This document shows positions 19,435 through 34,197 of a stretch of 64,000 bases of DNA, in pieces. Source of the DNA: a virus; IMG/VR virus record IMGVR_UViG_3300017963_007659, positions 64,001 to 128,000 of that record; one strand, given 5' to 3'. Position 1 is the first letter of the stretch. Each line of letters opens with the position of its first letter. The notes beneath the pieces were generated by a model. That model was not told where the DNA came from. It ran no database searches and saw only the letters and a program-made list of their open reading frames with translations. Position numbers and translations under genes: made by a program.

Positions 19435-19806
19435 AATGGTCTTCTTGGAAATAACGGTCGCGTCAATCCCTCGGATGAAGAGGTGAAGAGAAACCGCGCC
19501 GCGAAAGCCCGGAAAACGGCTGAGGCTGAAGAGCTGTTCTCTCAGCCCAGACCCGCTACAGATTGGGACCGTATGCTCCAAACGGCAGTGGAAGAAGCTC
19601 AAGTCGATAGCGACTGGCATGAGCCGAAACCTGATCCCACGGACGAAGAGATCGCGGCCCTTCTCGCTTGGTTTGGCTCCCGTGACGAAGGCATGTCCTA
19701 CTTGACGTCATTCCTCGCCGAACGCGGTTGGAATACTCTTGAAGACCTCTGGACGATGCGCGAAGCCCTTCTCATCGTTCAATATCAGTACCTCTCTGGG
19801 AACTAA
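19435..19806 (+). CDS. hypothetical early protein
   Basis: ATG after GGAGG. Confidence 0.65.
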   Translation, partial: NGLLGNNGRVNPSDEEVKRNRAAKARKTAEAEELFSQPRPATDWDRMLQTAVEEAQVDSDWHEPKPDPTDEEIAALLAWFGSRDEGMSYLTSFLAERGWNTLEDLWTMREALLIVQYQYLSGN

Positions 19807-20939
19807 CCAAAGAGCTTCACGTAGGGAAGAATCCCGCTCTCAATCCTCTCCTTCGCTATCTCAGCATACTCAGGGTTCAGTTCTACCCCAATGAAATGCC
19901 GGTCGTTCTTCACGCACACCAAACCAGTCGTTCCTGAGCCGCAGAAGGGGTCCAGGACGGTCGCTGGGACAGGAGTAGTCTCTTCGCACTCACAGGTTCT
20001 CCACGGAGCACCACAGGAGGAACAGACGCCTTCTGAGCTGGTTCCTGCCCGTATCATCGGAGTGATGAGGGCTTCCGGAAAAGTGGCGAAGTGGGAACCC
20101 TTGAAGGGCTGAGGATTGACATGAAACACGTTTGTTGGGTCCTGCTCCTTCAAGAAGTCACCCAGGATATCAGGGTGGTTTTCTGCCAACCACAGAGGAA
20201 GAGCAGTAGAATCCTCCACATGCCAAACGGATCGCCTGTTCCGCTTCTTGTACAGGGTCTCGCACTTCTCCTCGGAGCCAGGACCTCCCTTGCTAATCTG
20301 CTCCTGTCTCTTGAAGTTGTTCCCAGCTGCGTGGTCGGAGACGGCGTCTTCCTTGATCGCTTCGTGGTCGTAGAAGTAGTACCTACTCTTAGAGAACATG
20401 AAAACATTCTCGAAAGACCTTGTACAACGATCTCGAACCGGTTCAGGCATACAAGAACCTCCACGATAGTGAGGACCAGATATGCCTTTTGCCCATATAA
20501 GGTCTTGCCTGAGATAGTAGCCAGCATCCCGTAAGGCAAAAGCAACCTTCCAGGGTATACCTATCAAATCCTTCGGTTTGAGACCAAAGTCCGAGGCATC
20601 TACTTTGGCCCATCGTTTGACAGTCTTTTGTCCCTTCTCGTCACCTTTCCCTTTACGGCTTTCCCAATGCCCATGTCCCTTCGCTTGTGCATAGCTGTCA
20701 CCTAGAACAACAAACAAGGTCCCATCATTCCGGAGGACGCGATGAACTTCCTTGAAGACCTCTACAAGAGTCTGTACGAAAGCCTCTGGAGTGTCCTCCA
20801 GACCTATCTGTCCGTTAATATCGTAATCACGCAGATTCCAATACGGAGGACTCGTCACACAGCAGTGCACAGACTGGTCAGGGATCTCCCGTAGCTTCTC
20901 TTTGGCGTCCCCTACAAGAATCTCGTACCGACTTGTCAT
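19803..20939 (-). CDS. beta-class amino (N4C/N6A) DNA methyltransferase
   Basis: VTSPPY (motif IV) N-terminal, DPFCGSGTTG (motif I) C-terminal; CSSC...CEC insert. Confidence 0.9.
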   Translation of the reverse strand: MTSRYEILVGDAKEKLREIPDQSVHCCVTSPPYWNLRDYDINGQIGLEDTPEAFVQTLVEVFKEVHRVLRNDGTLFVVLGDSYAQAKGHGHWESRKGKGDEKGQKTVKRWAKVDASDFGLKPKDLIGIPWKVAFALRDAGYYLRQDLIWAKGISGPHYRGGSCMPEPVRDRCTRSFENVFMFSKSRYYFYDHEAIKEDAVSDHAAGNNFKRQEQISKGGPGSEEKCETLYKKRNRRSVWHVEDSTALPLWLAENHPDILGDFLKEQDPTNVFHVNPQPFKGSHFATFPEALITPMIRAGTSSEGVCSSCGAPWRTCECEETTPVPATVLDPFCGSGTTGLVCVKNDRHFIGVELNPEYAEIAKERIESGILPYVKLFG

Positions 20940-21190
20940 GGACAAAGGACCACACAGGGACGGGCGTCTTCCCGCATGTCGTCCTCTGTGTAACCTTCCT
21001 CCTCCAGCTCTTCTGTGAGCTTCAGGAAATGAACCGAAATCTCGTAGCCTTCTTTGAGGTAGCCTTGGTCTGTGGATACAGCATACAGCTCCCCGTAGGC
21101 ATTGCCCTCAGCATCAGAAGCAACGAGAACGACTGTGTTCTCATCTACAGTCTGGAGTACTTTGATCAGCTCACCTGCCCGCATTTTCAT
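20936..21190 (-). CDS. hypothetical protein
   Basis: 84-aa ORF, translationally coupled to the methyltransferase (ATGA overlap). Confidence 0.65.
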   Translation of the reverse strand: MKMRAGELIKVLQTVDENTVVLVASDAEGNAYGELYAVSTDQGYLKEGYEISVHFLKLTEELEEEGYTEDDMREDARPCVVLCP

Positions 21191-21267: not shown

Positions 21268-22194
21268 TCACACCAAGAACTGCCCACAGGCAGCCATGAC
21301 CTCGCTACCTGGAGATGTCTGCACCTTCACCCTCGGAAGCTCCTTCAAGAATAGCTCAGACACCTCATCGAACCGCTGTGATTCAGTGAATGGCGACCCT
21401 GAACACTGGTTGTAGCGGAGCAGCCGCAGCTCCAGGTCTGGACGTTCGGTAAAGAACCTCATGAGCTGCTCTATCTCCTCTGGAGAGTCGTTGATCCCCT
21501 CGAAGAGTAGCAGGTGACAGATGAGGGAGTTAGGCACCTTCCAGGAGCCTCTCAGGCGGTCCAGACGCTCTTGAAACCTGCTTCCATGCTTCCCCATGAG
21601 GAAGCACCTCGTCTCCTCGTTCAGAGACCCCAGAGAGATGAATAGGCGCACCAACGGGCGAGTCCTATCCTGCTCATTCTGGACTTCCGGAATCGTCTGG
21701 ACTTCCTTTACGAGCATGTCCAGGAGGTACTCTGGCATATTCTTGAAGTCGTAGTCAGGGAAGGAGGTGCCGACATCCACACAGTCCAGCCCTGTAGCCT
21801 TCTGGTGGTCTTTGAGGACACTCCGAAGAATCGAGGAAGTGACACAGCAGAGACTGCCTATCTCTGCCAGGGGCTCTCCCATCCCCATCCAAGCCAGCTT
21901 GACCTTCTTCTTCGTGATCGCCCGCCGATAGGTCGTCGCGTAGCTGATAGCATGCGAGAGGTTCTCTTCGATAGTCCACGGTTCGATCCGCTGGTACTTG
22001 CAGCCCTTCGTAGAGAGCATACAGAACTTGCAGTTCATCTTGCAACCGTAGGAGCAGGAGGCGAAGACGCTGTACTTCTCGCTGGCTTCGGATCCGAGAC
22101 CGGAACAGCCACCAACGTCTTTGATAGCCGTCTCTGAGAAGTCAGAGTGAATGAACTTGTAGACGGACCCGTCTTTAGTCGTCTTGACTTCCAT
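21268..22194 (-). CDS. RlmN/Cfr-like class A radical SAM methyltransferase (N-terminally truncated)
   Basis: CKMNCKFC cluster motif, MGMGEPL, LLFEGINDS, C-terminal GSEVMAACGQ; start at 22194 after AGGAG. Confidence 0.85.
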   Translation of the reverse strand: MEVKTTKDGSVYKFIHSDFSETAIKDVGGCSGLGSEASEKYSVFASCSYGCKMNCKFCMLSTKGCKYQRIEPWTIEENLSHAISYATTYRRAITKKKVKLAWMGMGEPLAEIGSLCCVTSSILRSVLKDHQKATGLDCVDVGTSFPDYDFKNMPEYLLDMLVKEVQTIPEVQNEQDRTRPLVRLFISLGSLNEETRCFLMGKHGSRFQERLDRLRGSWKVPNSLICHLLLFEGINDSPEEIEQLMRFFTERPDLELRLLRYNQCSGSPFTESQRFDEVSELFLKELPRVKVQTSPGSEVMAACGQFLV

Positions 22195-22459
22195 TCGTAT
22201 CTCCTTCTGGTGCGTCTGTCGTACATTTCTCACACAGAACAAGTCCCACCACATCTACGTGTTGGTCGATCAGCGTGCCACATCCAAAACACGCGCGGGT
22301 ATGAATGCTTGCTGCCTTCCACGAACAAGACCGGGGACGTTCTAGGGCTCTCTCCTGCTGTAGCTGTCCCAGAAGATACTCAGCATGCTCCTTCGGATTT
22401 CCTGGAGGAAGGTCATAGACAAGGATGTTCAAAAGCTCAAACAGCCGGTCTTCATCCAT
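22175..22459 (-). CDS. hypothetical zinc-ribbon protein
   Basis: CFGC...CEKC. Confidence 0.6.
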   Translation of the reverse strand: MDEDRLFELLNILVYDLPPGNPKEHAEYLLGQLQQERALERPRSCSWKAASIHTRACFGCGTLIDQHVDVVGLVLCEKCTTDAPEGDTNGSQDD

Positions 22460-23046: not shown

Positions 23047-25938
23047 TCAGTTCCACACATGCCCTTCTTGCTTCGGCCAAGCCACCCCGTCCGTGACCTG
23101 CTGCTCCAGCCATCCCCAGATCTCCGTGAACTCTTTCTCAGTGCGGTCAAAGCTCTTGCAGTTGCCATACTTGAAGCCAATATCGAAGTCGACAGCCAAG
23201 GGCACGATCATCTCGATACCGAACATCTCCTTCAAGCATGAAGTATCCATGAAGATACGCTCAGCCGTTTCGATGTACTCACGGAGAGCATCAGCATCGT
23301 AGGGGATCTCCGCTATGATGGAGTCGTGAACCAGGTTGACGATCTTCCAATCCTTGCCCTTCGCTTCGATGTACTGCTGAAGTCGGATACCAGCTATGAG
23401 GTTATAATCCGAGCTGGCAGCCTGGATGGGGGAGTTGCGCGCTTGGCGATTCCCACGTCCCGCGTTGCCTTCAGCGTACTCATGAGCGAGATGGCGACGT
23501 CGACCCATGGGAGAGGTGACATACCCCTTCGTCTGAGCAGCCTTCTCAGCCATAAGCAACCAGGCGTGAACGTCGGGGAACTGTGCGAAGAAGGTGTCCA
23601 GAAGCTCCTGAGCCTTCTCAACCTCAACCCCAAGGTTCTTGGCGAGTGTCTTGACATGCTGCCCGAACATGATCCCGAAGACGATTCTCTTGGCGTCCTG
23701 TCGCTGGACAGACGTCACGTCTTCGATGGGAATCTGATGCATCAGTGCAGCGGTCTGTCTATGCACGTCGCACTCGAATTTGACTCGCTTCTTGTTCTCC
23801 TCTGTTGGATTCGCTATGTACTCAGCCTTGACCTTCTCCATGTTGCGGAAGACCTTGGCGTAGTTCTTATCTTGTGCGATCTGGACAGCCCATCTTACCT
23901 CAGATTGAGCTACGTCCATCTGGACTAGTAGACGCCCATGAGGGACGCAGTACATGTTCTTGACGGCTTTCCTAGCCGCGACTGTAGCAGCGAGACGTCC
24001 CTTCCCTGGAACCTGCTGGAGGTTCACCTGCTCCGAGCTTGTTCTCCCAGAGGTGACACGGCACGAGGTGAAGCTAGAACGCATTCTCCCGTCTGCACAC
24101 TCCCCATCAGGACCTTCCCCATGGATTCGAGCATTGACGCTCTTGGTGTAGCTGGTATCGAGCTTGTAGAGCCCTTTGTACTCGTAAACGAGGTCGACGA
24201 TGTGCTGGGTTGGAGTGACCTCCACGTCCTCTGGGAGGTCGTCGTCACTCTTGTTTCGCTCGAATAGCGCGGTGTTGATCTCTGGCTGCGGGATCTCCGC
24301 TCCTGTGATAGGGTCTATCTTCGGCTTGCTCCATCCCAGAGGCTCAATCTTGAGCACATCGATGAGCAGAGTGATGAGACATTCTTTCTTGTCTATGTCC
24401 AAGACCCAGGGACTACCAAAGAGACCTGCCATCCCCGCAGCCTTGGTCTTCCCAAGGTGGAGAGTATTGGCTTGCTGGACCTCTGGCAAAGAAAACAGCT
24501 CCTCCTTGATCTCTTTCATCCTCTGCTTGATCGGAGACAACTCCCCACAGAGCATACGGAGATGAGGGACGTCAATCTGGAAGCCGTTGCGTTCGATAGA
24601 CTCGAAAGCGCAGATGAGCGGTCCGTGCATGTGCACATTGAAATTCAGGACACGCTCTCTTCCTCCCTCTTCCTTATCAGCTACGTCAAGAAGCGCGCGT
24701 GCCAGCCGATGCGGCACATACCCATCCATCGCACAGTACTCTCGGAAACCGGTATCGAACAGGGAAATCTTATCGAAGTCCTGTCGCTTCTTCTTCATAC
24801 CGGAGTCCTCGAACTTCGTCCATCCGATATAGTCATTGGCTAGCTTCGCCAACGACATGGGCTTGTCACTCTTTGGAATTCGCTTGAGACGCTGCTCGTC
24901 CACGCAGTGCGCTAGGAACATCGTATCCAGCAGAGAGGCGTTCAGCGGCATACGTGCCGTTCCCAGGTCCGGATGGATACAGGTGCGCAGCATAGCCAGG
25001 TCGAACTTGAGGTAGTTCCCTGTGACCCACTGGAAGGCGTCTGTAGGCGTCGTCAGCAGCCGAATGACCTCAGCCTGTACCTGTGGCAGTTCTGTCGGAG
25101 ACCAAGGAGACTCAGGGTGCATGTACGGGATGAGTGTGGTGATCATCCCGTCATTGCAGAACTGAATCATGGACACTTCATTCTTGAAGCGATGAAGTCC
25201 CCCTCTTGTCTCCGTATCGAAGGCGAGAATCCCATCGATAGCAGGAGTCGTCAAGTAGCTATCGACTACCGTCTTGAGCTTCTCCAGCGTATCGACATAG
25301 AAGTAGTGACCGTCTTTGAGCCAATCGACACTCGGGTCTTCGTCTACGAGCTTCTTGGCTGTCTTCAGGACGTTAGTGTACTTCTGTGTCCAGGAAGCTT
25401 TGGCTGTGGGTTCGTGCTGACGAGCGATGAAGGAGGGGTGAACGTTGGCGAGATAGGTGACGCCATCCTTCTCGACGTAGCGACCTTGAGCACGGAGAAC
25501 TCCCGCTGAAGCTAGCTCCGGAGCGAGCGCCTTGATTGCCGTCCCTCCGAGCATCACGACAACCTTCGGCTTATGCCGCTGGATCTCTTCAAGAAGATAG
25601 GGAACGCAGTGTCTCACCTCATCGGGGTTGGGAGTCTGATTACGAAGGGGACGGCACTTACAGACGTTCGCCAGAGCGTAGTCTCCGAGAATACCGGCTT
25701 CCTGCATGCAAGCACGATGAATCTGACCAGAGACCCCGACTAGCGGTCTCCCCCTCGTGCCATCTGGATGCACATAGGCGTCCTCGTCGGCTCCGAGAGC
25801 TTCAGCGACGAAGAAGATGTCTGGTTGCCCTTCGATCTCGGTTGGGCTATACCAGACGATGTTTCCTGTGAACTGAGGGTGGAGTGAGCATCCAGGGCAA
25901 CACACCCGGTCCTGCTCTGCTCTATAGTCGAGACGCAT
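23047..25938 (-). CDS. polA: family A DNA polymerase with N-terminal family-4 uracil-DNA-glycosylase-like (Fe-S) domain and 3'-5' exonuclease
   Basis: UDG: CPGC, AEALGADED, NVCKCRP, HPS. Exo: FDTET, KFD, YCAMD. Pol motifs A (DVAQSEVR), B (RQDAKRIVFGIMFG), C (VHDS). Confidence 0.92.
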   Translation of the reverse strand: MRLDYRAEQDRVCCPGCSLHPQFTGNIVWYSPTEIEGQPDIFFVAEALGADEDAYVHPDGTRGRPLVGVSGQIHRACMQEAGILGDYALANVCKCRPLRNQTPNPDEVRHCVPYLLEEIQRHKPKVVVMLGGTAIKALAPELASAGVLRAQGRYVEKDGVTYLANVHPSFIARQHEPTAKASWTQKYTNVLKTAKKLVDEDPSVDWLKDGHYFYVDTLEKLKTVVDSYLTTPAIDGILAFDTETRGGLHRFKNEVSMIQFCNDGMITTLIPYMHPESPWSPTELPQVQAEVIRLLTTPTDAFQWVTGNYLKFDLAMLRTCIHPDLGTARMPLNASLLDTMFLAHCVDEQRLKRIPKSDKPMSLAKLANDYIGWTKFEDSGMKKKRQDFDKISLFDTGFREYCAMDGYVPHRLARALLDVADKEEGGRERVLNFNVHMHGPLICAFESIERNGFQIDVPHLRMLCGELSPIKQRMKEIKEELFSLPEVQQANTLHLGKTKAAGMAGLFGSPWVLDIDKKECLITLLIDVLKIEPLGWSKPKIDPITGAEIPQPEINTALFERNKSDDDLPEDVEVTPTQHIVDLVYEYKGLYKLDTSYTKSVNARIHGEGPDGECADGRMRSSFTSCRVTSGRTSSEQVNLQQVPGKGRLAATVAARKAVKNMYCVPHGRLLVQMDVAQSEVRWAVQIAQDKNYAKVFRNMEKVKAEYIANPTEENKKRVKFECDVHRQTAALMHQIPIEDVTSVQRQDAKRIVFGIMFGQHVKTLAKNLGVEVEKAQELLDTFFAQFPDVHAWLLMAEKAAQTKGYVTSPMGRRRHLAHEYAEGNAGRGNRQARNSPIQAASSDYNLIAGIRLQQYIEAKGKDWKIVNLVHDSIIAEIPYDADALREYIETAERIFMDTSCLKEMFGIEMIVPLAVDFDIGFKYGNCKSFDRTEKEFTEIWGWLEQQVTDGVAWPKQEGHVWN

Positions 25939-26061: not shown

Positions 26062-26832
26062 TCACTCGGTCACCTTTCCGTGGGCGAAAAGCTGAGGCAT
26101 TCGTTGGGATGATTCCAAGCGCTTTTTCCCGAGAGCGAACACTTCAGGGTCTTTCTCACAGACCCAAAAGCTACGCCCCAAGCTGCGCGCGGCTACCGCT
26201 GTGGTGAACGATCCAGCGAATGGGTCAACAACGAGGTCTCCGGGGTTGGAGTGCGCCTGTAAGATGATCTCATAGAGTTGTGTCGGCTTCTGAGCCGAGA
26301 CGATCTTCTGATGCATGACCTCGGTCACGTCCGTCCACACATTGGAGCGTCTCTTGAAGGTGCTGTGTGGTTTGTACTTCTTGTTCTTGAGCACGTTCTG
26401 CGTCATCTCGGAATGCTGTTCAGTCAGGTAGGGCTTGTTGAAAATCGCAGGCTTCTCCCCGCGCACCAACCAGAGCATCTCCTCTCGGGTGAAGAGGTAG
26501 CGGTCAGCCACTCCGTAGCCGCGACTCTTCTTCCAAGTGATGAAGTCGCGGAGACGCCACTCCTTGAACTCATCCTCGACAGTAGCCGCGAACTTCAAGA
26601 ATGCCCTGTTCTTGTGTGATCCAATCCCGCCCCACATGAGGACCGAACCTCCCTCCAGGACGAAGTTCTGGCACCCTTCCACGAAGTCGTAGAGGAATGT
26701 CAGGAGCTGCTTCTCATCCAGGTTGTCATAGTCATCAGAGACAACTTGCCCATAGGGTGGGTCAGCGATGACGAGGAGCGTCTCAGGAGGGGCCTGCTCG
26801 AAGAAGTCTCCACAGATAGTGGTCTCTGCCAT
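26062..26832 (-). CDS. beta-class amino DNA methyltransferase
   Basis: IADPPY and DPFAGSFTT motifs. Confidence 0.88.
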   Translation of the reverse strand: MAETTICGDFFEQAPPETLLVIADPPYGQVVSDDYDNLDEKQLLTFLYDFVEGCQNFVLEGGSVLMWGGIGSHKNRAFLKFAATVEDEFKEWRLRDFITWKKSRGYGVADRYLFTREEMLWLVRGEKPAIFNKPYLTEQHSEMTQNVLKNKKYKPHSTFKRRSNVWTDVTEVMHQKIVSAQKPTQLYEIILQAHSNPGDLVVDPFAGSFTTAVAARSLGRSFWVCEKDPEVFALGKKRLESSQRMPQLFAHGKVTE

Positions 26833-27459: not shown

Positions 27460-28299
27460 CTAGATTTTGAGCGCTATCCGCTTGACGTCTTCCGTCACGT
27501 CCATGTTCTTGTGAGCACAGACATCCGGCTTCGTCAGCCTCTCAACGATGAGGTCAGCGTAGTCCTGCTCAATCTCAGCCCCAATCCAACGACGACCGTA
27601 GGACTCACAGACAACGGCTGTCGTCCCGGAACCCATGAAGGGGTCCACCACCAAGTCTTCAAGATTGGTAGACATTGCTACCACGCGGTCCAGGATCTTC
27701 GTCGAGAGCACATTGGCTCTCCTCTCCATCTGCTTGAACTTCTTGTGTCGCACAGGAGAGATGTCCGTCCACACGTCTTTGAGAGATAGACCATCCGGAT
27801 GAAGCTTGCTCTTGTGCCCACCGTAGTCCTTGACGGTCTCTCCGCACTTGCGACAGACAGGGATGGGTGTGCGGATCTTCTTGAAGGTCTTGGGAGGTCC
27901 CTTGGTGTAGTAGAGCAGGCTGTAGTGGGCCGGATAGAGCCTACCCTTGATAGGCATAACCGTTGTCATCTCGATAGCAATCCAATGCCTGAAGGTTAGC
28001 CTCTTCTTCGAGAGGTAGGCTCCAAGAGGCACATTCCACTTTGGGAGGTTGTAGAGGAAGAAGGACCCTCCAGGCTTCAAGATTCGTACACACTCCTTGA
28101 TCCACTGATGACACCACGTCAGGTACTCCTCCTCTGGAAGAGCGTCGTTCGTCTGCGGTCCGTAGCTCTTTCCAATGTTGAAGGGAGGGTCGGCGAAGAC
28201 AGTATCGACGGAGAAGTCATCGATGGTCGCAAGGACGTCTAGGCAGTCTCCGTGATAGAGCTTACCAAAGGGAGTGGTGTGGTAGGGGTACATGGTCAT
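27460..28299 (-). CDS. beta-class DNA methyltransferase, M.BamHI-like (probably N4-cytosine)
   Basis: FADPPF and DPFMGSGTT; RLYPAHYSLLYY, CxxC-KDYGG, DVWTDISPVRH segments resemble M.BamHI as recalled from memory. Confidence 0.85.
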   Translation of the reverse strand: MTMYPYHTTPFGKLYHGDCLDVLATIDDFSVDTVFADPPFNIGKSYGPQTNDALPEEEYLTWCHQWIKECVRILKPGGSFFLYNLPKWNVPLGAYLSKKRLTFRHWIAIEMTTVMPIKGRLYPAHYSLLYYTKGPPKTFKKIRTPIPVCRKCGETVKDYGGHKSKLHPDGLSLKDVWTDISPVRHKKFKQMERRANVLSTKILDRVVAMSTNLEDLVVDPFMGSGTTAVVCESYGRRWIGAEIEQDYADLIVERLTKPDVCAHKNMDVTEDVKRIALKI

Positions 28300-31965: not shown

Positions 31966-33159
31966 TCACGCTCTCTTTCTTCGCTTCTTCCCCTCTTTAG
32001 GCTGCTTCACCGTAGACCAGGGATTCTCGTAGTCGTACTTTTCTCCAAGGATCTTGAGATCATGGAGAAGACCGATCGGAGCGTCGAATCCGCTGAGCCC
32101 CTCTTCAACCAGCTCCATCTGAAGCTCTTCAATCTTCTTGAAGTCAGGATCATGCGGGAGCTTCGAGTTGGCTTCGGCGACGATGATCTCCTTGTCCTTC
32201 TTCTTGGCCCACTCCACCAGCTCTTCGTACTTCATCGCGCCACGGAGGATGCTCAGCAACCACTCTGCTTCAGGACGCTTGACGATGACCCCTTTGCCTT
32301 CCAGAATCTCGATCCCCATATTCATGAGACGACAGAGGTGGAGTGCATTCTTCGTGTCATAGCCGAACTTCGCTTCCAGCTTGGCGCGCTCCGGATGTCG
32401 ATTCTTCTTCCACTCCTGGTAGCCCTGCCACTGCTTCATGGCATTCTTGTAGCGCCTCTCAGCCATGACAGCCTGGATCATCTCCTCGGAGACAGCAGTT
32501 AGGTCTTTGAGGACAGGAGCACAGTTCTCCGGAAGCTGAGCGCTCTGGACCATCCCCGTCCAGTCAATCCCATCCAGCTCATCCTTGGTAGACTGCGAGA
32601 GCTTGGAACCTGCTGCGGTCTGCTCTAGGAGCTGCGTCACAAGCCACATGTACGCGTTCATCTCATCAGCCCCAATCACGGAGCGGTGCTCCGGGAGACC
32701 AAAAGCTGACCGCTGCGGAGGAGCCTTCGGCGGATTCAAGAGATACTTGCGGTGCCGTTCGATCAGCTTGAGCTGTGCGAATGCGTACCCCGAGAAGGAA
32801 TGCCGAGCCTTCAACGTCAAGAAGAGATCGATCTTGCTCCGAATCCTCTCCATGAGGTCATCCATGTAGAGGATGTTCCCATCGTCGATGGCGAACAGCT
32901 CAATGATGTTCGGGTTGCAGGTGGCAGCCAGATTCAAGAACTTGATCACGCCATAAACGACGATATCGTTGACCTTCTTGGCTTCTTTCTTTGGTTCGTA
33001 CTGCTGGAAGCGTTGGTTCCCGTACACGTTCTCACGGTCGAGAAGGCAGATCCCACGAAGGTCGATGTCACTCACGGGAGTAGAGGTGCCGTAGGCGTGC
33101 GACCCAGCACGGACCATGTAGATGAGCTTTCGTTCCCAGACTGGATATTTTCGAGGCAT
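31966..33159 (-). CDS. DNA polymerase beta-superfamily nucleotidyltransferase (PF10127/RlaP-like)
   Basis: GSHAYGTSTPVSDIDLRG; C-terminal YDTKNALHLCRL. Confidence 0.85.
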   Translation of the reverse strand: MPRKYPVWERKLIYMVRAGSHAYGTSTPVSDIDLRGICLLDRENVYGNQRFQQYEPKKEAKKVNDIVVYGVIKFLNLAATCNPNIIELFAIDDGNILYMDDLMERIRSKIDLFLTLKARHSFSGYAFAQLKLIERHRKYLLNPPKAPPQRSAFGLPEHRSVIGADEMNAYMWLVTQLLEQTAAGSKLSQSTKDELDGIDWTGMVQSAQLPENCAPVLKDLTAVSEEMIQAVMAERRYKNAMKQWQGYQEWKKNRHPERAKLEAKFGYDTKNALHLCRLMNMGIEILEGKGVIVKRPEAEWLLSILRGAMKYEELVEWAKKKDKEIIVAEANSKLPHDPDFKKIEELQMELVEEGLSGFDAPIGLLHDLKILGEKYDYENPWSTVKQPKEGKKRRKRA

Positions 33160-33195: not shown

Positions 33196-34173
33196 CTAGG
33201 CGGCTTTCTTGGACGCCTCGGACTTCTTGGCCTTCTTCGGCGCGGCTGCCTTGCGGAGGAAGTCCGCAGCCTTCTTCGCCTTGGAGGCAGCTCGGTTGAA
33301 GATGCGCTTGTCTTTGCTGACAGCCTCGAACCAATTCGCCAAATATTCTGGATGTTGGCACTGCCCGTCAATCTGGAAGTCCGCGCCAACGAACGCTGCG
33401 GTCAGCTCCGCAACCAATTCCTCTTCGGCGTAGGACTTCGAGCCAAAGACGTTGTTGAGCGGTCGGTTGAGGCGGCTCTTATGACCGGTAGCGTGGGCGA
33501 ATTCGTGAATCTGAGTCGCGTAGAAGTCTTCCGAGGACTTGAAGCGGTCAAGCTCGGGAACGCTGATGCGGTCAGTCATGCTGCTGTAGCAAGCGCGGTC
33601 TCCACCGAACTGGAGCTTGAAGCCGCAGCTCTTGTGGACCTTGGACAAGAAGGCTTCGATCTCGTCGTTACGCTCAAGCTGAGTCTTCGTCGCAGCCGGG
33701 AGCAATTTCGTGTACTTCTTGGGGTCGATGGTGGTCTGCTCGACGTTGTAGACGAACTGAACGCCGCGCATCCAGGAAGTGACCGTCTCTTCGTCGCCGT
33801 TATCGTCGAGGACAGGGTTGCCGTCGGAGTCGAGCTTGGTGCGCTCGTTGGGACGGAACCATATGACTGCCCAAGAGTTGTTGTACTCGTCTTCCTGAAC
33901 AACTTCACCGTTGCGCGTCTTGCGACCCTTGACGTGTCCCCCGAGAGCCGTTGCCTGCTTCGCTGTGACCCAGAGAGGCGTATTGTAGCCGAGAGAAGAC
34001 ATGACGGCGCTGAGATACACAGCGTTTCCACCGTTGTATCCACGACCAGTACCTGCGTTCCGCTGATTACCCAACGTTTGCCAGGGCTTGACCCAAGGAG
34101 CAACGCCCTTTTCGAGCTGCTCAAGAATCATCTCAATCTGTTCCGCTTGGGCGTCTCTGCTGCGCTTTTTCAT
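33196..34173 (-). CDS. ardC: ArdC-family antirestriction ssDNA-binding protein with zincin (MPTase) domain
   Basis: PWVKPW, YNGGN, W.T.KQA..LGG.V, GGDRACY, HEFAHATGH..RLNR, YA.EELVAEL. Confidence 0.9.
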   Translation of the reverse strand: MKKRSRDAQAEQIEMILEQLEKGVAPWVKPWQTLGNQRNAGTGRGYNGGNAVYLSAVMSSLGYNTPLWVTAKQATALGGHVKGRKTRNGEVVQEDEYNNSWAVIWFRPNERTKLDSDGNPVLDDNGDEETVTSWMRGVQFVYNVEQTTIDPKKYTKLLPAATKTQLERNDEIEAFLSKVHKSCGFKLQFGGDRACYSSMTDRISVPELDRFKSSEDFYATQIHEFAHATGHKSRLNRPLNNVFGSKSYAEEELVAELTAAFVGADFQIDGQCQHPEYLANWFEAVSKDKRIFNRAASKAKKAADFLRKAAAPKKAKKSEASKKAA

Positions 34174-34197
34174 TCTGTCCTCCAACCAACTAGAAAC

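Follow-up and report, generated by a model that had tools for sequence, protein, structure and literature searches.

The closest characterised relatives of the protein described here are RlmN, the E. coli enzyme that synthesizes 2-methyladenosine in 23S ribosomal RNA (rRNA; m2A2503) and in transfer RNA (tRNA; m2A37) and whose structures are available as PDB entries 3RFA, 4PL1, 5HR6/5HR7 and 6FZ6, and Cfr, the 23S rRNA m8A2503 enzyme, for which PDB entry 9P0P and a cryo-EM structure of a C105A-rRNA complex have been determined. In class-A radical S-adenosylmethionine (SAM) methylases such as these, a second, resolving cysteine is treated as indispensable. In the published structures the Cys118 of RlmN and the Cys105 of Cfr face the target carbon directly and take the proton from it, and when the residue is removed in the C118A/S and C105A/S variants the enzyme is trapped on RNA and stable protein-RNA cross-links build up. 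The Glu105 of RlmN deprotonates the methyl-carrier cysteine (PMC9692996), and the loop leading from this glutamate to the strand β1 lines the target base in both enzymes (PMC12887959). Here we describe a gene (P0002) at positions 21268–22194 on the minus strand of a 64,000-nucleotide stretch of viral DNA, hereafter the window, which covers positions 64,001 to 128,000 of the IMG/VR record IMGVR_UViG_3300017963_007659. Its product is a member of a conserved, naturally occurring family that comprises about 140 sequence clusters, almost exclusively from phages or giant plasmids, and that has a phenylalanine at the site of the resolving cysteine, and either the chemistry is finished in an undescribed way, or the covalent adduct is the intended product. 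Searches of the literature on phage RlmN-like enzymes and on C2- or C8-methyladenine in phage DNA, and of a comparative review of jumbo phages, found no paper on the family.

By its fold and hallmarks the window protein is a class-A (RlmN/Cfr-type) radical SAM methylase, minus the HhH2-type N-terminal domain. An AlphaFold model built on 44 relatives (predicted local distance difference test score 91) has RlmN as its best Foldseek fold match (E 3e-15), and the VIA alignment of residues 1–305 of the model with residues 83–357 of RlmN gives a Z-score of 26.7 and a root-mean-square deviation of 2.5 Å over 261 residues, compared with a Z-score of 17.8 for Cfr and of at most 15.8 for the next radical SAM enzymes. 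RlmN is likewise the best sequence match in the PDB, and the RlmN equivalog model TIGR00048 aligns at E 1e-15, so that the likeness to RlmN far exceeds chance by all three measures. The TIGR00048 score of 57.3 bits is nevertheless below the cut-off of 290, the Cfr models NF000424 and TIGR04432 score 42.4 bits versus 530 and 38 versus 550, respectively (the NCBIfam cut-offs for Cfr are 468–550), and in Pfam only Radical_SAM is matched, below threshold, with no match to PF21016. The features that define the class are present as a CxxxCxxC motif in a partial TIM-barrel fold, a C-terminal carrier cysteine and an activating glutamate, and the missing one is the second, resolving cysteine seven residues before the cluster motif. 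The gene and its key residues, numbered from the Met1 of the 308-residue protein at the ATG at 22194, are located as follows.

21268–22194, minus strand, stop codon included: coding sequence of the RlmN/Cfr-like radical SAM protein (P0002), 308 residues, identified by the family profile, the AlphaFold model and the RlmN fold match
22201–22204, minus strand: Shine-Dalgarno sequence GGAG, 6 nt before the ATG at 22194
22132–22134, minus strand: Glu21, equivalent to RlmN Glu105; glutamate in 163 of 173 family members
22105–22107, minus strand: Cys30, candidate finishing residue in the lengthened loop between Glu21 and strand β1; a loop cysteine is present in 103 of 165 members
22063–22065, minus strand: Phe44, at the site of the resolving cysteine (RlmN Cys118, Cfr Cys105); Phe in 139 and Cys in 3 of 173 members
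22054–22056, minus strand: Cys47, equivalent to RlmN Ser121, clade-specific; 21–22 members, about seven changes on the tree
22021–22044, minus strand: Cys51-x3-Cys55-x2-Cys58, the [4Fe-4S] cluster motif; 171–172 of 173 members
21871–21888, minus strand: Met103-Gly-Met-Gly-Glu-Pro108, the SAM-binding motif, with Met103 equivalent to RlmN Met176 in the alignments
21403–21405, minus strand: Cys264 in the family motif LLRYNxC, equivalent to RlmN Phe314, candidate finishing residue; Cys in 125 of 165 members, His in 11
21280–21294, minus strand: Ala301-Ala-Cys303-Gly-Gln305, with Cys303 equivalent to the methyl-carrier cysteine (RlmN Cys355, Cfr Cys338); Cys303 in 171 of 173 members

The radical SAM core, the β-extension and the C-terminal loop fold are thus common to RlmN and the window protein, as are the CxxxCxxC motif, MGMGEP with its first methionine, the glutamate and the carrier cysteine of AACGQ, all of which the original prediction had read from the letters and which are borne out by the family alignments. 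The differences are nonetheless considerable. Sequence identity to RlmN is only 22–23%, and the N-terminal extension of the cellular enzyme is indeed missing, since RlmN residues 1–82, which make up the domain PF21016, have no counterpart by either Pfam or the VIA alignment; the phage clades all begin approximately 85 residues later than RlmN. The loop between the glutamate and β1 is longer by 10 residues, a helical insert of about 30 residues follows Thr143, and the base-lining residues Ile109, Arg114, Asn172, Thr346 and Arg347 of RlmN are replaced by Lys25, Lys40, Lys99, Ser294 and Pro295. The median isoelectric point is 9.0 for RlmN, whether the whole protein or only its core is considered, but 6.7 in the phage family. 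With Cfr the window protein shares the class-A architecture, the C-terminal cysteine loop and the carriage on mobile elements; however, the structural match is weaker than that to RlmN, an equivalent of Cys105 and the N-terminal domain are lacking, and its position in the tree is outside the Cfr branch. The ribose-contacting Ser103 and Ser153 of Cfr align with Ser/Asn42 and Ser/Cys101 of the family.

The gene appears to be complete. The open reading frame spans 21268–22254 on the minus strand and could encode 328 residues, but its Met21, at the ATG at 22194, is taken as the start because the GGAG is located 6 nt upstream; the N-termini across the family line up with this ATG as well, and public gene calls give the 308-residue form, so the longer version starting at 22254 was rejected. 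The window protein is in one piece, with AACGQ in the same reading frame. A pseudogene or decaying copy was also rejected, as every catalytic motif is intact and the family is conserved despite a pairwise identity of only 30–40% among its 173 full-length members. In this set the three cluster cysteines and Cys303 are conserved at 99–100%, Met103 at 99%, Glu21 at 94%, His16 at 92% and Lys13, Lys25, Lys40 and Lys99 at 94–97% each, and the invariant residues of the family, Lys13, His16, Glu21, Lys25, Lys40, Ser46, Ser48, Lys99, His227, Arg257, Arg260, Asn262, Lys290, Gln292 and Cys303, are all found in the window protein. The family profile and alignment (A1) have the window protein as their first row, so its match to that profile holds by construction; support independent of the profile comes from relatives at E 1e-103 to 1e-32, from the invariant columns and from the placement inside the clade in the tree.

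The loss of the resolving cysteine is a property of the family as a whole. In the ungapped HMMER alignment with the RlmN C118A variant (4PL1) over the cluster-motif region, Phe44 falls on residue 118 and Cys47 on Ser121, three residues later, as had been proposed, and BLASTP against E. coli RlmN concurs. Position 44 is Phe in 139, Val or Ile in 20 and Cys in 3 of the 173 members. As a control, a cysteine seven residues before the cluster motif is present in 48 of 49 cellular RlmN-like hits versus 3 of 171 family members. The original prediction regarded Cys47 as the displaced resolving cysteine, a reading that is not supported as it stands: in the family a cysteine at this position is found in only 21–22 of 165–173 members (13%) and has been gained or lost about seven times on the tree. 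Cysteines are much more common at other sites: among the 165 core members, position 264 is Cys in 125 (76%; His in 11), the loop 26–40 contains one in 103 (62%) and position 101 is Cys in 69 (42%). At least one cysteine among the loop 26–40 and positions 47, 101 and 264 is present in 164 of the 165, and the exception has His264. Were the sites independent, 7.6 members without a cysteine at all four would be expected versus the one observed, in a calculation that ignores relatedness and uses sites picked as cysteine-rich. The loop 26–40 aligns with RlmN residues 106–117 and position 101 with RlmN Val174 and Cfr Ser153, both of which line the target nucleotide, while position 264 corresponds to RlmN Phe314, just past the strand β6. 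The window protein has Cys30, Cys47 and Cys264 but alanine at position 101, and its finishing residue would be a non-canonical one, for which Cys264, Cys30 and Cys47 are the candidates. Mutation of these candidates should trap the substrate covalently and provide a direct handle for its identification.

The family is also clearly set apart from RlmN and Cfr in searches and in phylogeny. A word-indexed search retrieved about 70 clusters with E values between 1e-103 and 1e-32; after a gap, cellular RlmN follows with E values no better than 1e-12. When 1.8 billion representatives were searched with the family profile, 140 clusters (50% identity) reached E≤1e-30. In the tree, from an unrooted quick LG+G4 search that placed the family together with RlmN, Cfr and further phage proteins, 58 rows, among them the window protein and that of Klebsiella phage 05F01 (gene_104, BBK09218.1), the single cultured carrier found, lie on one side of a branch with an approximate likelihood-ratio (SH-aLRT) support of 99, and RlmN and Cfr on another branch, also with support of 99. 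Two small clades lie between the core family and RlmN plus Cfr, one with P0255 and P0256, which keeps the cysteine at position 44, and one in which P0261 groups with the protein of Pseudomonas phage Psa21. The topology and the low family-model scores led to rejection of a host RlmN captured by the phage. The original prediction would have been undone by a position among ordinary host RlmN proteins or by a protein inactive and poorly conserved among related phages; the former is at odds with the tree, in which the two groups occupy opposite sides of the well-supported branches, and the latter with the good conservation among phages. The core family is a separate clade, taken to be sister to RlmN/Cfr, which is carried on mobile elements, that is, on large phages and some megaplasmid-like contigs.

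Carriage on such elements is evident from the loci, of which 27 are viral and 121 metagenomic, many on contigs of 100–540 kb, and the nearest Atlas clusters are 75–89% viral. Among 185,579 species genomes scanned with peptide patterns, just three loci were confirmed, two of them on 35%-identical contigs of metagenome-assembled genomes, a number which is a lower bound. One lineage, with a neighbourhood that differs at each locus, is found on contigs of 0.4–1.5 Mb beside TrfA and ParM-like genes, which suggests that it resides on megaplasmid-like elements rather than phages. Other, uncharacterised phage RlmN-like clades exist, namely phrog_27142, which includes gp398 of Pseudomonas phage Psa21 (D6), and the radical SAM protein of phage 201phi2-1; these proteins are likewise short, phage-borne and devoid of the N-terminal domain, but they are only about 23% identical to the window protein, and that of Psa21 falls outside the core family. 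The Psa21 protein also lacks the cysteine at the Cys118 site, having a tyrosine there, and its gene has four tRNAs and RtcB as neighbours. In the viral library, the structural matches give template modelling scores of 0.69–0.72.

The conservation pattern is the basis for presuming that the enzyme is active, with methylation of Cys303 and formation of a methylene radical as in RlmN. By homology with RlmN and Cfr, a first SAM would methylate Cys303, and a second SAM would yield a 5′-deoxyadenosyl radical that converts the S-methyl-Cys303 to the methylene radical, which would then add to an sp2 carbon of a flipped-out base and so join enzyme and substrate in an adduct. To release the methylated product, a proton would have to be abstracted by a non-canonical residue, possibly one of the three candidates named above. 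Our best reading is an intact one-piece class-A enzyme, probably active, with RNA as the target and most likely a tRNA adenine in or near the anticodon loop, a reading that we hold tentatively and rate at slightly less than an even chance. A tRNA target is favoured because of the homology together with the recurrent tRNA and RNA-repair context of the gene, and because the record itself is without tRNA genes, in this phage the substrate would be a host tRNA. The modification might serve phage translation, or the protection or re-modification of tRNA alongside RNA-repair enzymes. A more specific version, which we consider unlikely though worth stating, is that large phages and megaplasmids, with a pared-down enzyme, finish the class-A reaction in the absence of the usual resolving cysteine, or deliberately leave it unfinished, and together with RlaP and an RNA ligase C-methylate anticodon-loop adenines, which would make tRNAs of the host or the phage resistant to host anticodon nucleases. 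In the bacterial Pnkp/Hen1 RNA repair system, Hen1 methylates the repaired junction, and this protection would be analogous.

The context in question was compared over 115 loci that fall into 37 lineages at 55% identity, 28 of them with usable flanks. Ten lineages have tRNA genes in the flanks, and in four (L025, L010, L021 and L052) it sits within a tRNA array, 11–900 nt from tRNAs. A 234-kb phage has no more than five tRNAs, all in a 6-kb span around the gene, and in phages of 363 kb and 141 kb it lies within the main tRNA cluster. An RNA ligase gene follows the radical SAM gene in L026 and L028. In L047 the RlaP gene begins 24 nt downstream of it, and in the L010, L011 and L118 lineages RlaP is found within 2–6 kb. 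In the L011 lineage the upstream neighbour is a YqeY-like gene whose end is 9–75 nt away, and L107, L092, L115, L036 and phage 05F01 have one in the vicinity; the predicted complex between the L011 YqeY-like neighbour and the enzyme has scores of 0.00, 0.47 and 0.00 and weighs neither way. Altogether 13 of the 28 lineages have at least one RNA-related neighbour (tRNA genes, YqeY-like, RlaP or RNA ligase). DNA polymerases and nucleotide-metabolism genes are also frequent neighbours in other lineages, and all-against-all clustering of the neighbouring genes found no partner conserved across lineages, with the neighbourhood in the L006 lineage differing at each locus. Taken over the family, the context favours tRNA and RNA repair over DNA. 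In the L021 array that holds the radical SAM gene, ARAGORN also predicts a transfer-messenger RNA (L021:9534–9929).

In the window, the gene is part of a run of co-directional, tightly packed minus-strand genes, and the features around it are the following.

19803–20945, minus strand: N6/N4 DNA methyltransferase (Pfam), two genes downstream of the radical SAM gene in the same transcription block
Between 19803–20945 and the radical SAM gene, in the minus-strand run: an open reading frame of 84 residues
Between the radical SAM gene and PolA, in the minus-strand run: three small open reading frames
23047–25938, minus strand: family A DNA polymerase (PolA) with an N-terminal uracil-DNA glycosylase (UDG) domain, upstream in the same block
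26062–26832, minus strand: DNA methyltransferase, N6/N4-type
Between 26062–26832 and 27460–28299, in the minus-strand run: an open reading frame of 197 residues
27460–28299, minus strand: DNA methyltransferase, N6/N4-type
31966–33159, minus strand: RlaP-family RNA-repair nucleotidyltransferase, 9.8 kb upstream of the radical SAM gene on the same strand
33196–34185, further upstream: ArdC-like/zincin protein
G000:C1:143890–144381, plus strand, outside the window: RNA-ligase-family gene

The last of these is located elsewhere in the source record (G000, 186,314 bp), which IMG/VR labels as a provirus with an estimated completeness of 50%. RlaP and the RNA-ligase-family gene make up an RNA-repair kit in a record without tRNA genes. 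The three DNA methyltransferases together with the ArdC-like protein look like an anti-restriction region. The operon with a DNA methyltransferase near the DNA polymerase, pointed out in the original prediction, is real in the window; however, in the nearest syntenic phages, L002 and L044 (53–54% identity), the gene and its downstream neighbours are kept while no recognisable methyltransferase or PolA is found beside it, for which reason the operon link to the methyltransferase is not considered conserved. Over the 28 lineages a DNA methyltransferase within 7 kb is present in four by strict search, and in 7 of about 18 by a looser search plus Pfam annotation.

Several observations weigh against a tRNA target. 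The domain by which RlmN and Cfr grasp L-shaped RNA is missing, and the family is less basic than RlmN, as reflected in the isoelectric points given above. The immediate neighbours here are DNA enzymes, that is, the three DNA methyltransferases, the PolA-UDG fusion and the ArdC-like protein, and the whole 186-kb record has no tRNA gene and no YqeY. Of ten whole large-phage records with tRNA clusters, five have the gene outside the cluster, and sequence no more than 7 kb from a tRNA is estimated to make up about 20% of each of the ten genomes. The tRNA regions of large phages moreover gather accessory genes. As to the finishing residue, no single second cysteine is conserved, and independent-pairs compensation tests on the 165-row tree gave no signal, with too few informative pairs. 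A neighbourhood is also no proof of function, and the proposed tRNA target is based on context and homology.

Of the alternatives to a tRNA target, C-methylation of DNA, or of deoxynucleoside triphosphates before their incorporation (yielding, for example, m2dA or m8dA), would together with the orphan DNA methyltransferases protect the phage DNA from restriction. This agrees with the co-directional block in the window that combines the three N6/N4 methyltransferases, PolA-UDG and the ArdC-like protein, with the methyltransferases near the gene in the 4 or 7 lineages mentioned above, and with other lineages where the gene adjoins DNA polymerases, ribonucleotide reductases, dUTPase or UDG or lies near plasmid replication genes; the loss of the N-terminal domain that reads RNA shape and the lower isoelectric point would also fit a different substrate, and published work exists on the hypermodification of thymidine in phages (PMC8989533). 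Yet the nearest relatives by synteny do not have the methyltransferase beside the gene, early phage genes generically reside in replication and nucleotide modules, a literature search for C2- or C8-methyladenine in phage DNA found no report, and we know of no class-A enzyme that acts on DNA, so we regard modification of DNA as a minority possibility. Methylation of 23S rRNA at or near A2503, which might alter the host ribosome in infection or give the carrier element antibiotic tolerance, would follow from the activity of the closest characterised relatives and from the travel of Cfr genes on mobile elements as well. It is quite improbable in our estimation, with scores far under both cut-offs (57 versus 290 bits for RlmN, 42 versus 530 for Cfr), a position outside the RlmN plus Cfr clade, no N-terminal domain of the kind that anchors the rRNA helices H90–H92, and base-lining residues (Lys25, Lys40, Lys99, Ser294 and Pro295) that differ from those of RlmN.

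The near-neutral isoelectric point and the lost nucleic-acid-binding domain could also indicate that the substrate is not a polymer but a small molecule such as a nucleotide, an NAD-related metabolite or a cofactor, whose phosphates could be bound by the invariant Lys25, Lys40, Lys99, Arg183, Arg257, Arg260 and Lys290. The neighbours in the family include NrdD, ribonucleotide reductase, dUTPase, MazG, NT5C and NUDIX, and RlmN-like proteins fused to NUDIX are among the Atlas structural neighbours. Arg257, however, aligns with Asn288 of Cfr and position 101 with Ser153, both of which contact the backbone of the polymeric substrate, and the tRNA and RNA-repair neighbours would be left unexplained, so that a small-molecule substrate appears very unlikely. 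Finally, without the resolving cysteine the methylene adduct might itself be the end product, the enzyme being a natural single-turnover cross-linker that becomes covalently joined to host or phage nucleic acid, in line with the stable cross-links of the RlmN C118A/S and Cfr C105A/S variants and the phenylalanine of the family at the same site. But nearly all members keep another cysteine, or in one case a histidine, around the predicted pocket, suggesting continued selection for a finishing residue, and no associated protease or release factor was seen in the conserved neighbourhoods; such a function is thus the kind of outcome that we would be most surprised to see. Once the substrate is known, phage biology would gain a new nucleic-acid modification, which could be a tRNA mark tied to RNA repair and counter-defence, or a first C-methylated purine in DNA.

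Some further observations concern the surroundings of the gene in the window and in its relatives. The UDG-superfamily domain of PolA covers residues 36–181 (PF03167, E 2e-19), and the L010 lineage has a free-standing UDG of 189 residues near the radical SAM gene instead of the PolA fusion. The three N6/N4-type DNA methyltransferases of the window are contained in 8.5 kb, and no restriction partner was seen. In L129 (a 410-kb contig) and L130 (a 46-kb contig), whose lineage has a further copy, L085, on a contig of 1.46 Mb, the gene is near TrfA, a ParM-like (ALP) gene, a C39-peptidase ABC exporter and flagellin. The neighbours in L006 are Wadjet (JetB/C/D), NERD and another radical SAM gene, which weakly matches the viperin model; the PADLOC defence-system models have no match for P0002 or P0042. 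The Atlas structural neighbours of P0002 include cellular RlmN-like proteins fused to NUDIX in Myxococcota, or to a cytidine/tRNA-adenosine-deaminase-type domain in Bacillota. No minus-strand terminator was predicted between 18000 and 27600. The motif AGTCAAAGTA, with up to one mismatch allowed, occurs in 22 copies in the window versus 3.3 expected, is mostly located just upstream of genes and probably serves as a phage-specific promoter or start signal; examples of its sites are given below.

27452, minus strand: AGTCAAAGTA site
18533, minus strand: AGTCAAAGTA site with one mismatch
5282, plus strand: AGTCAAAGTA site
62545, plus strand: AGTCAAAGTA site

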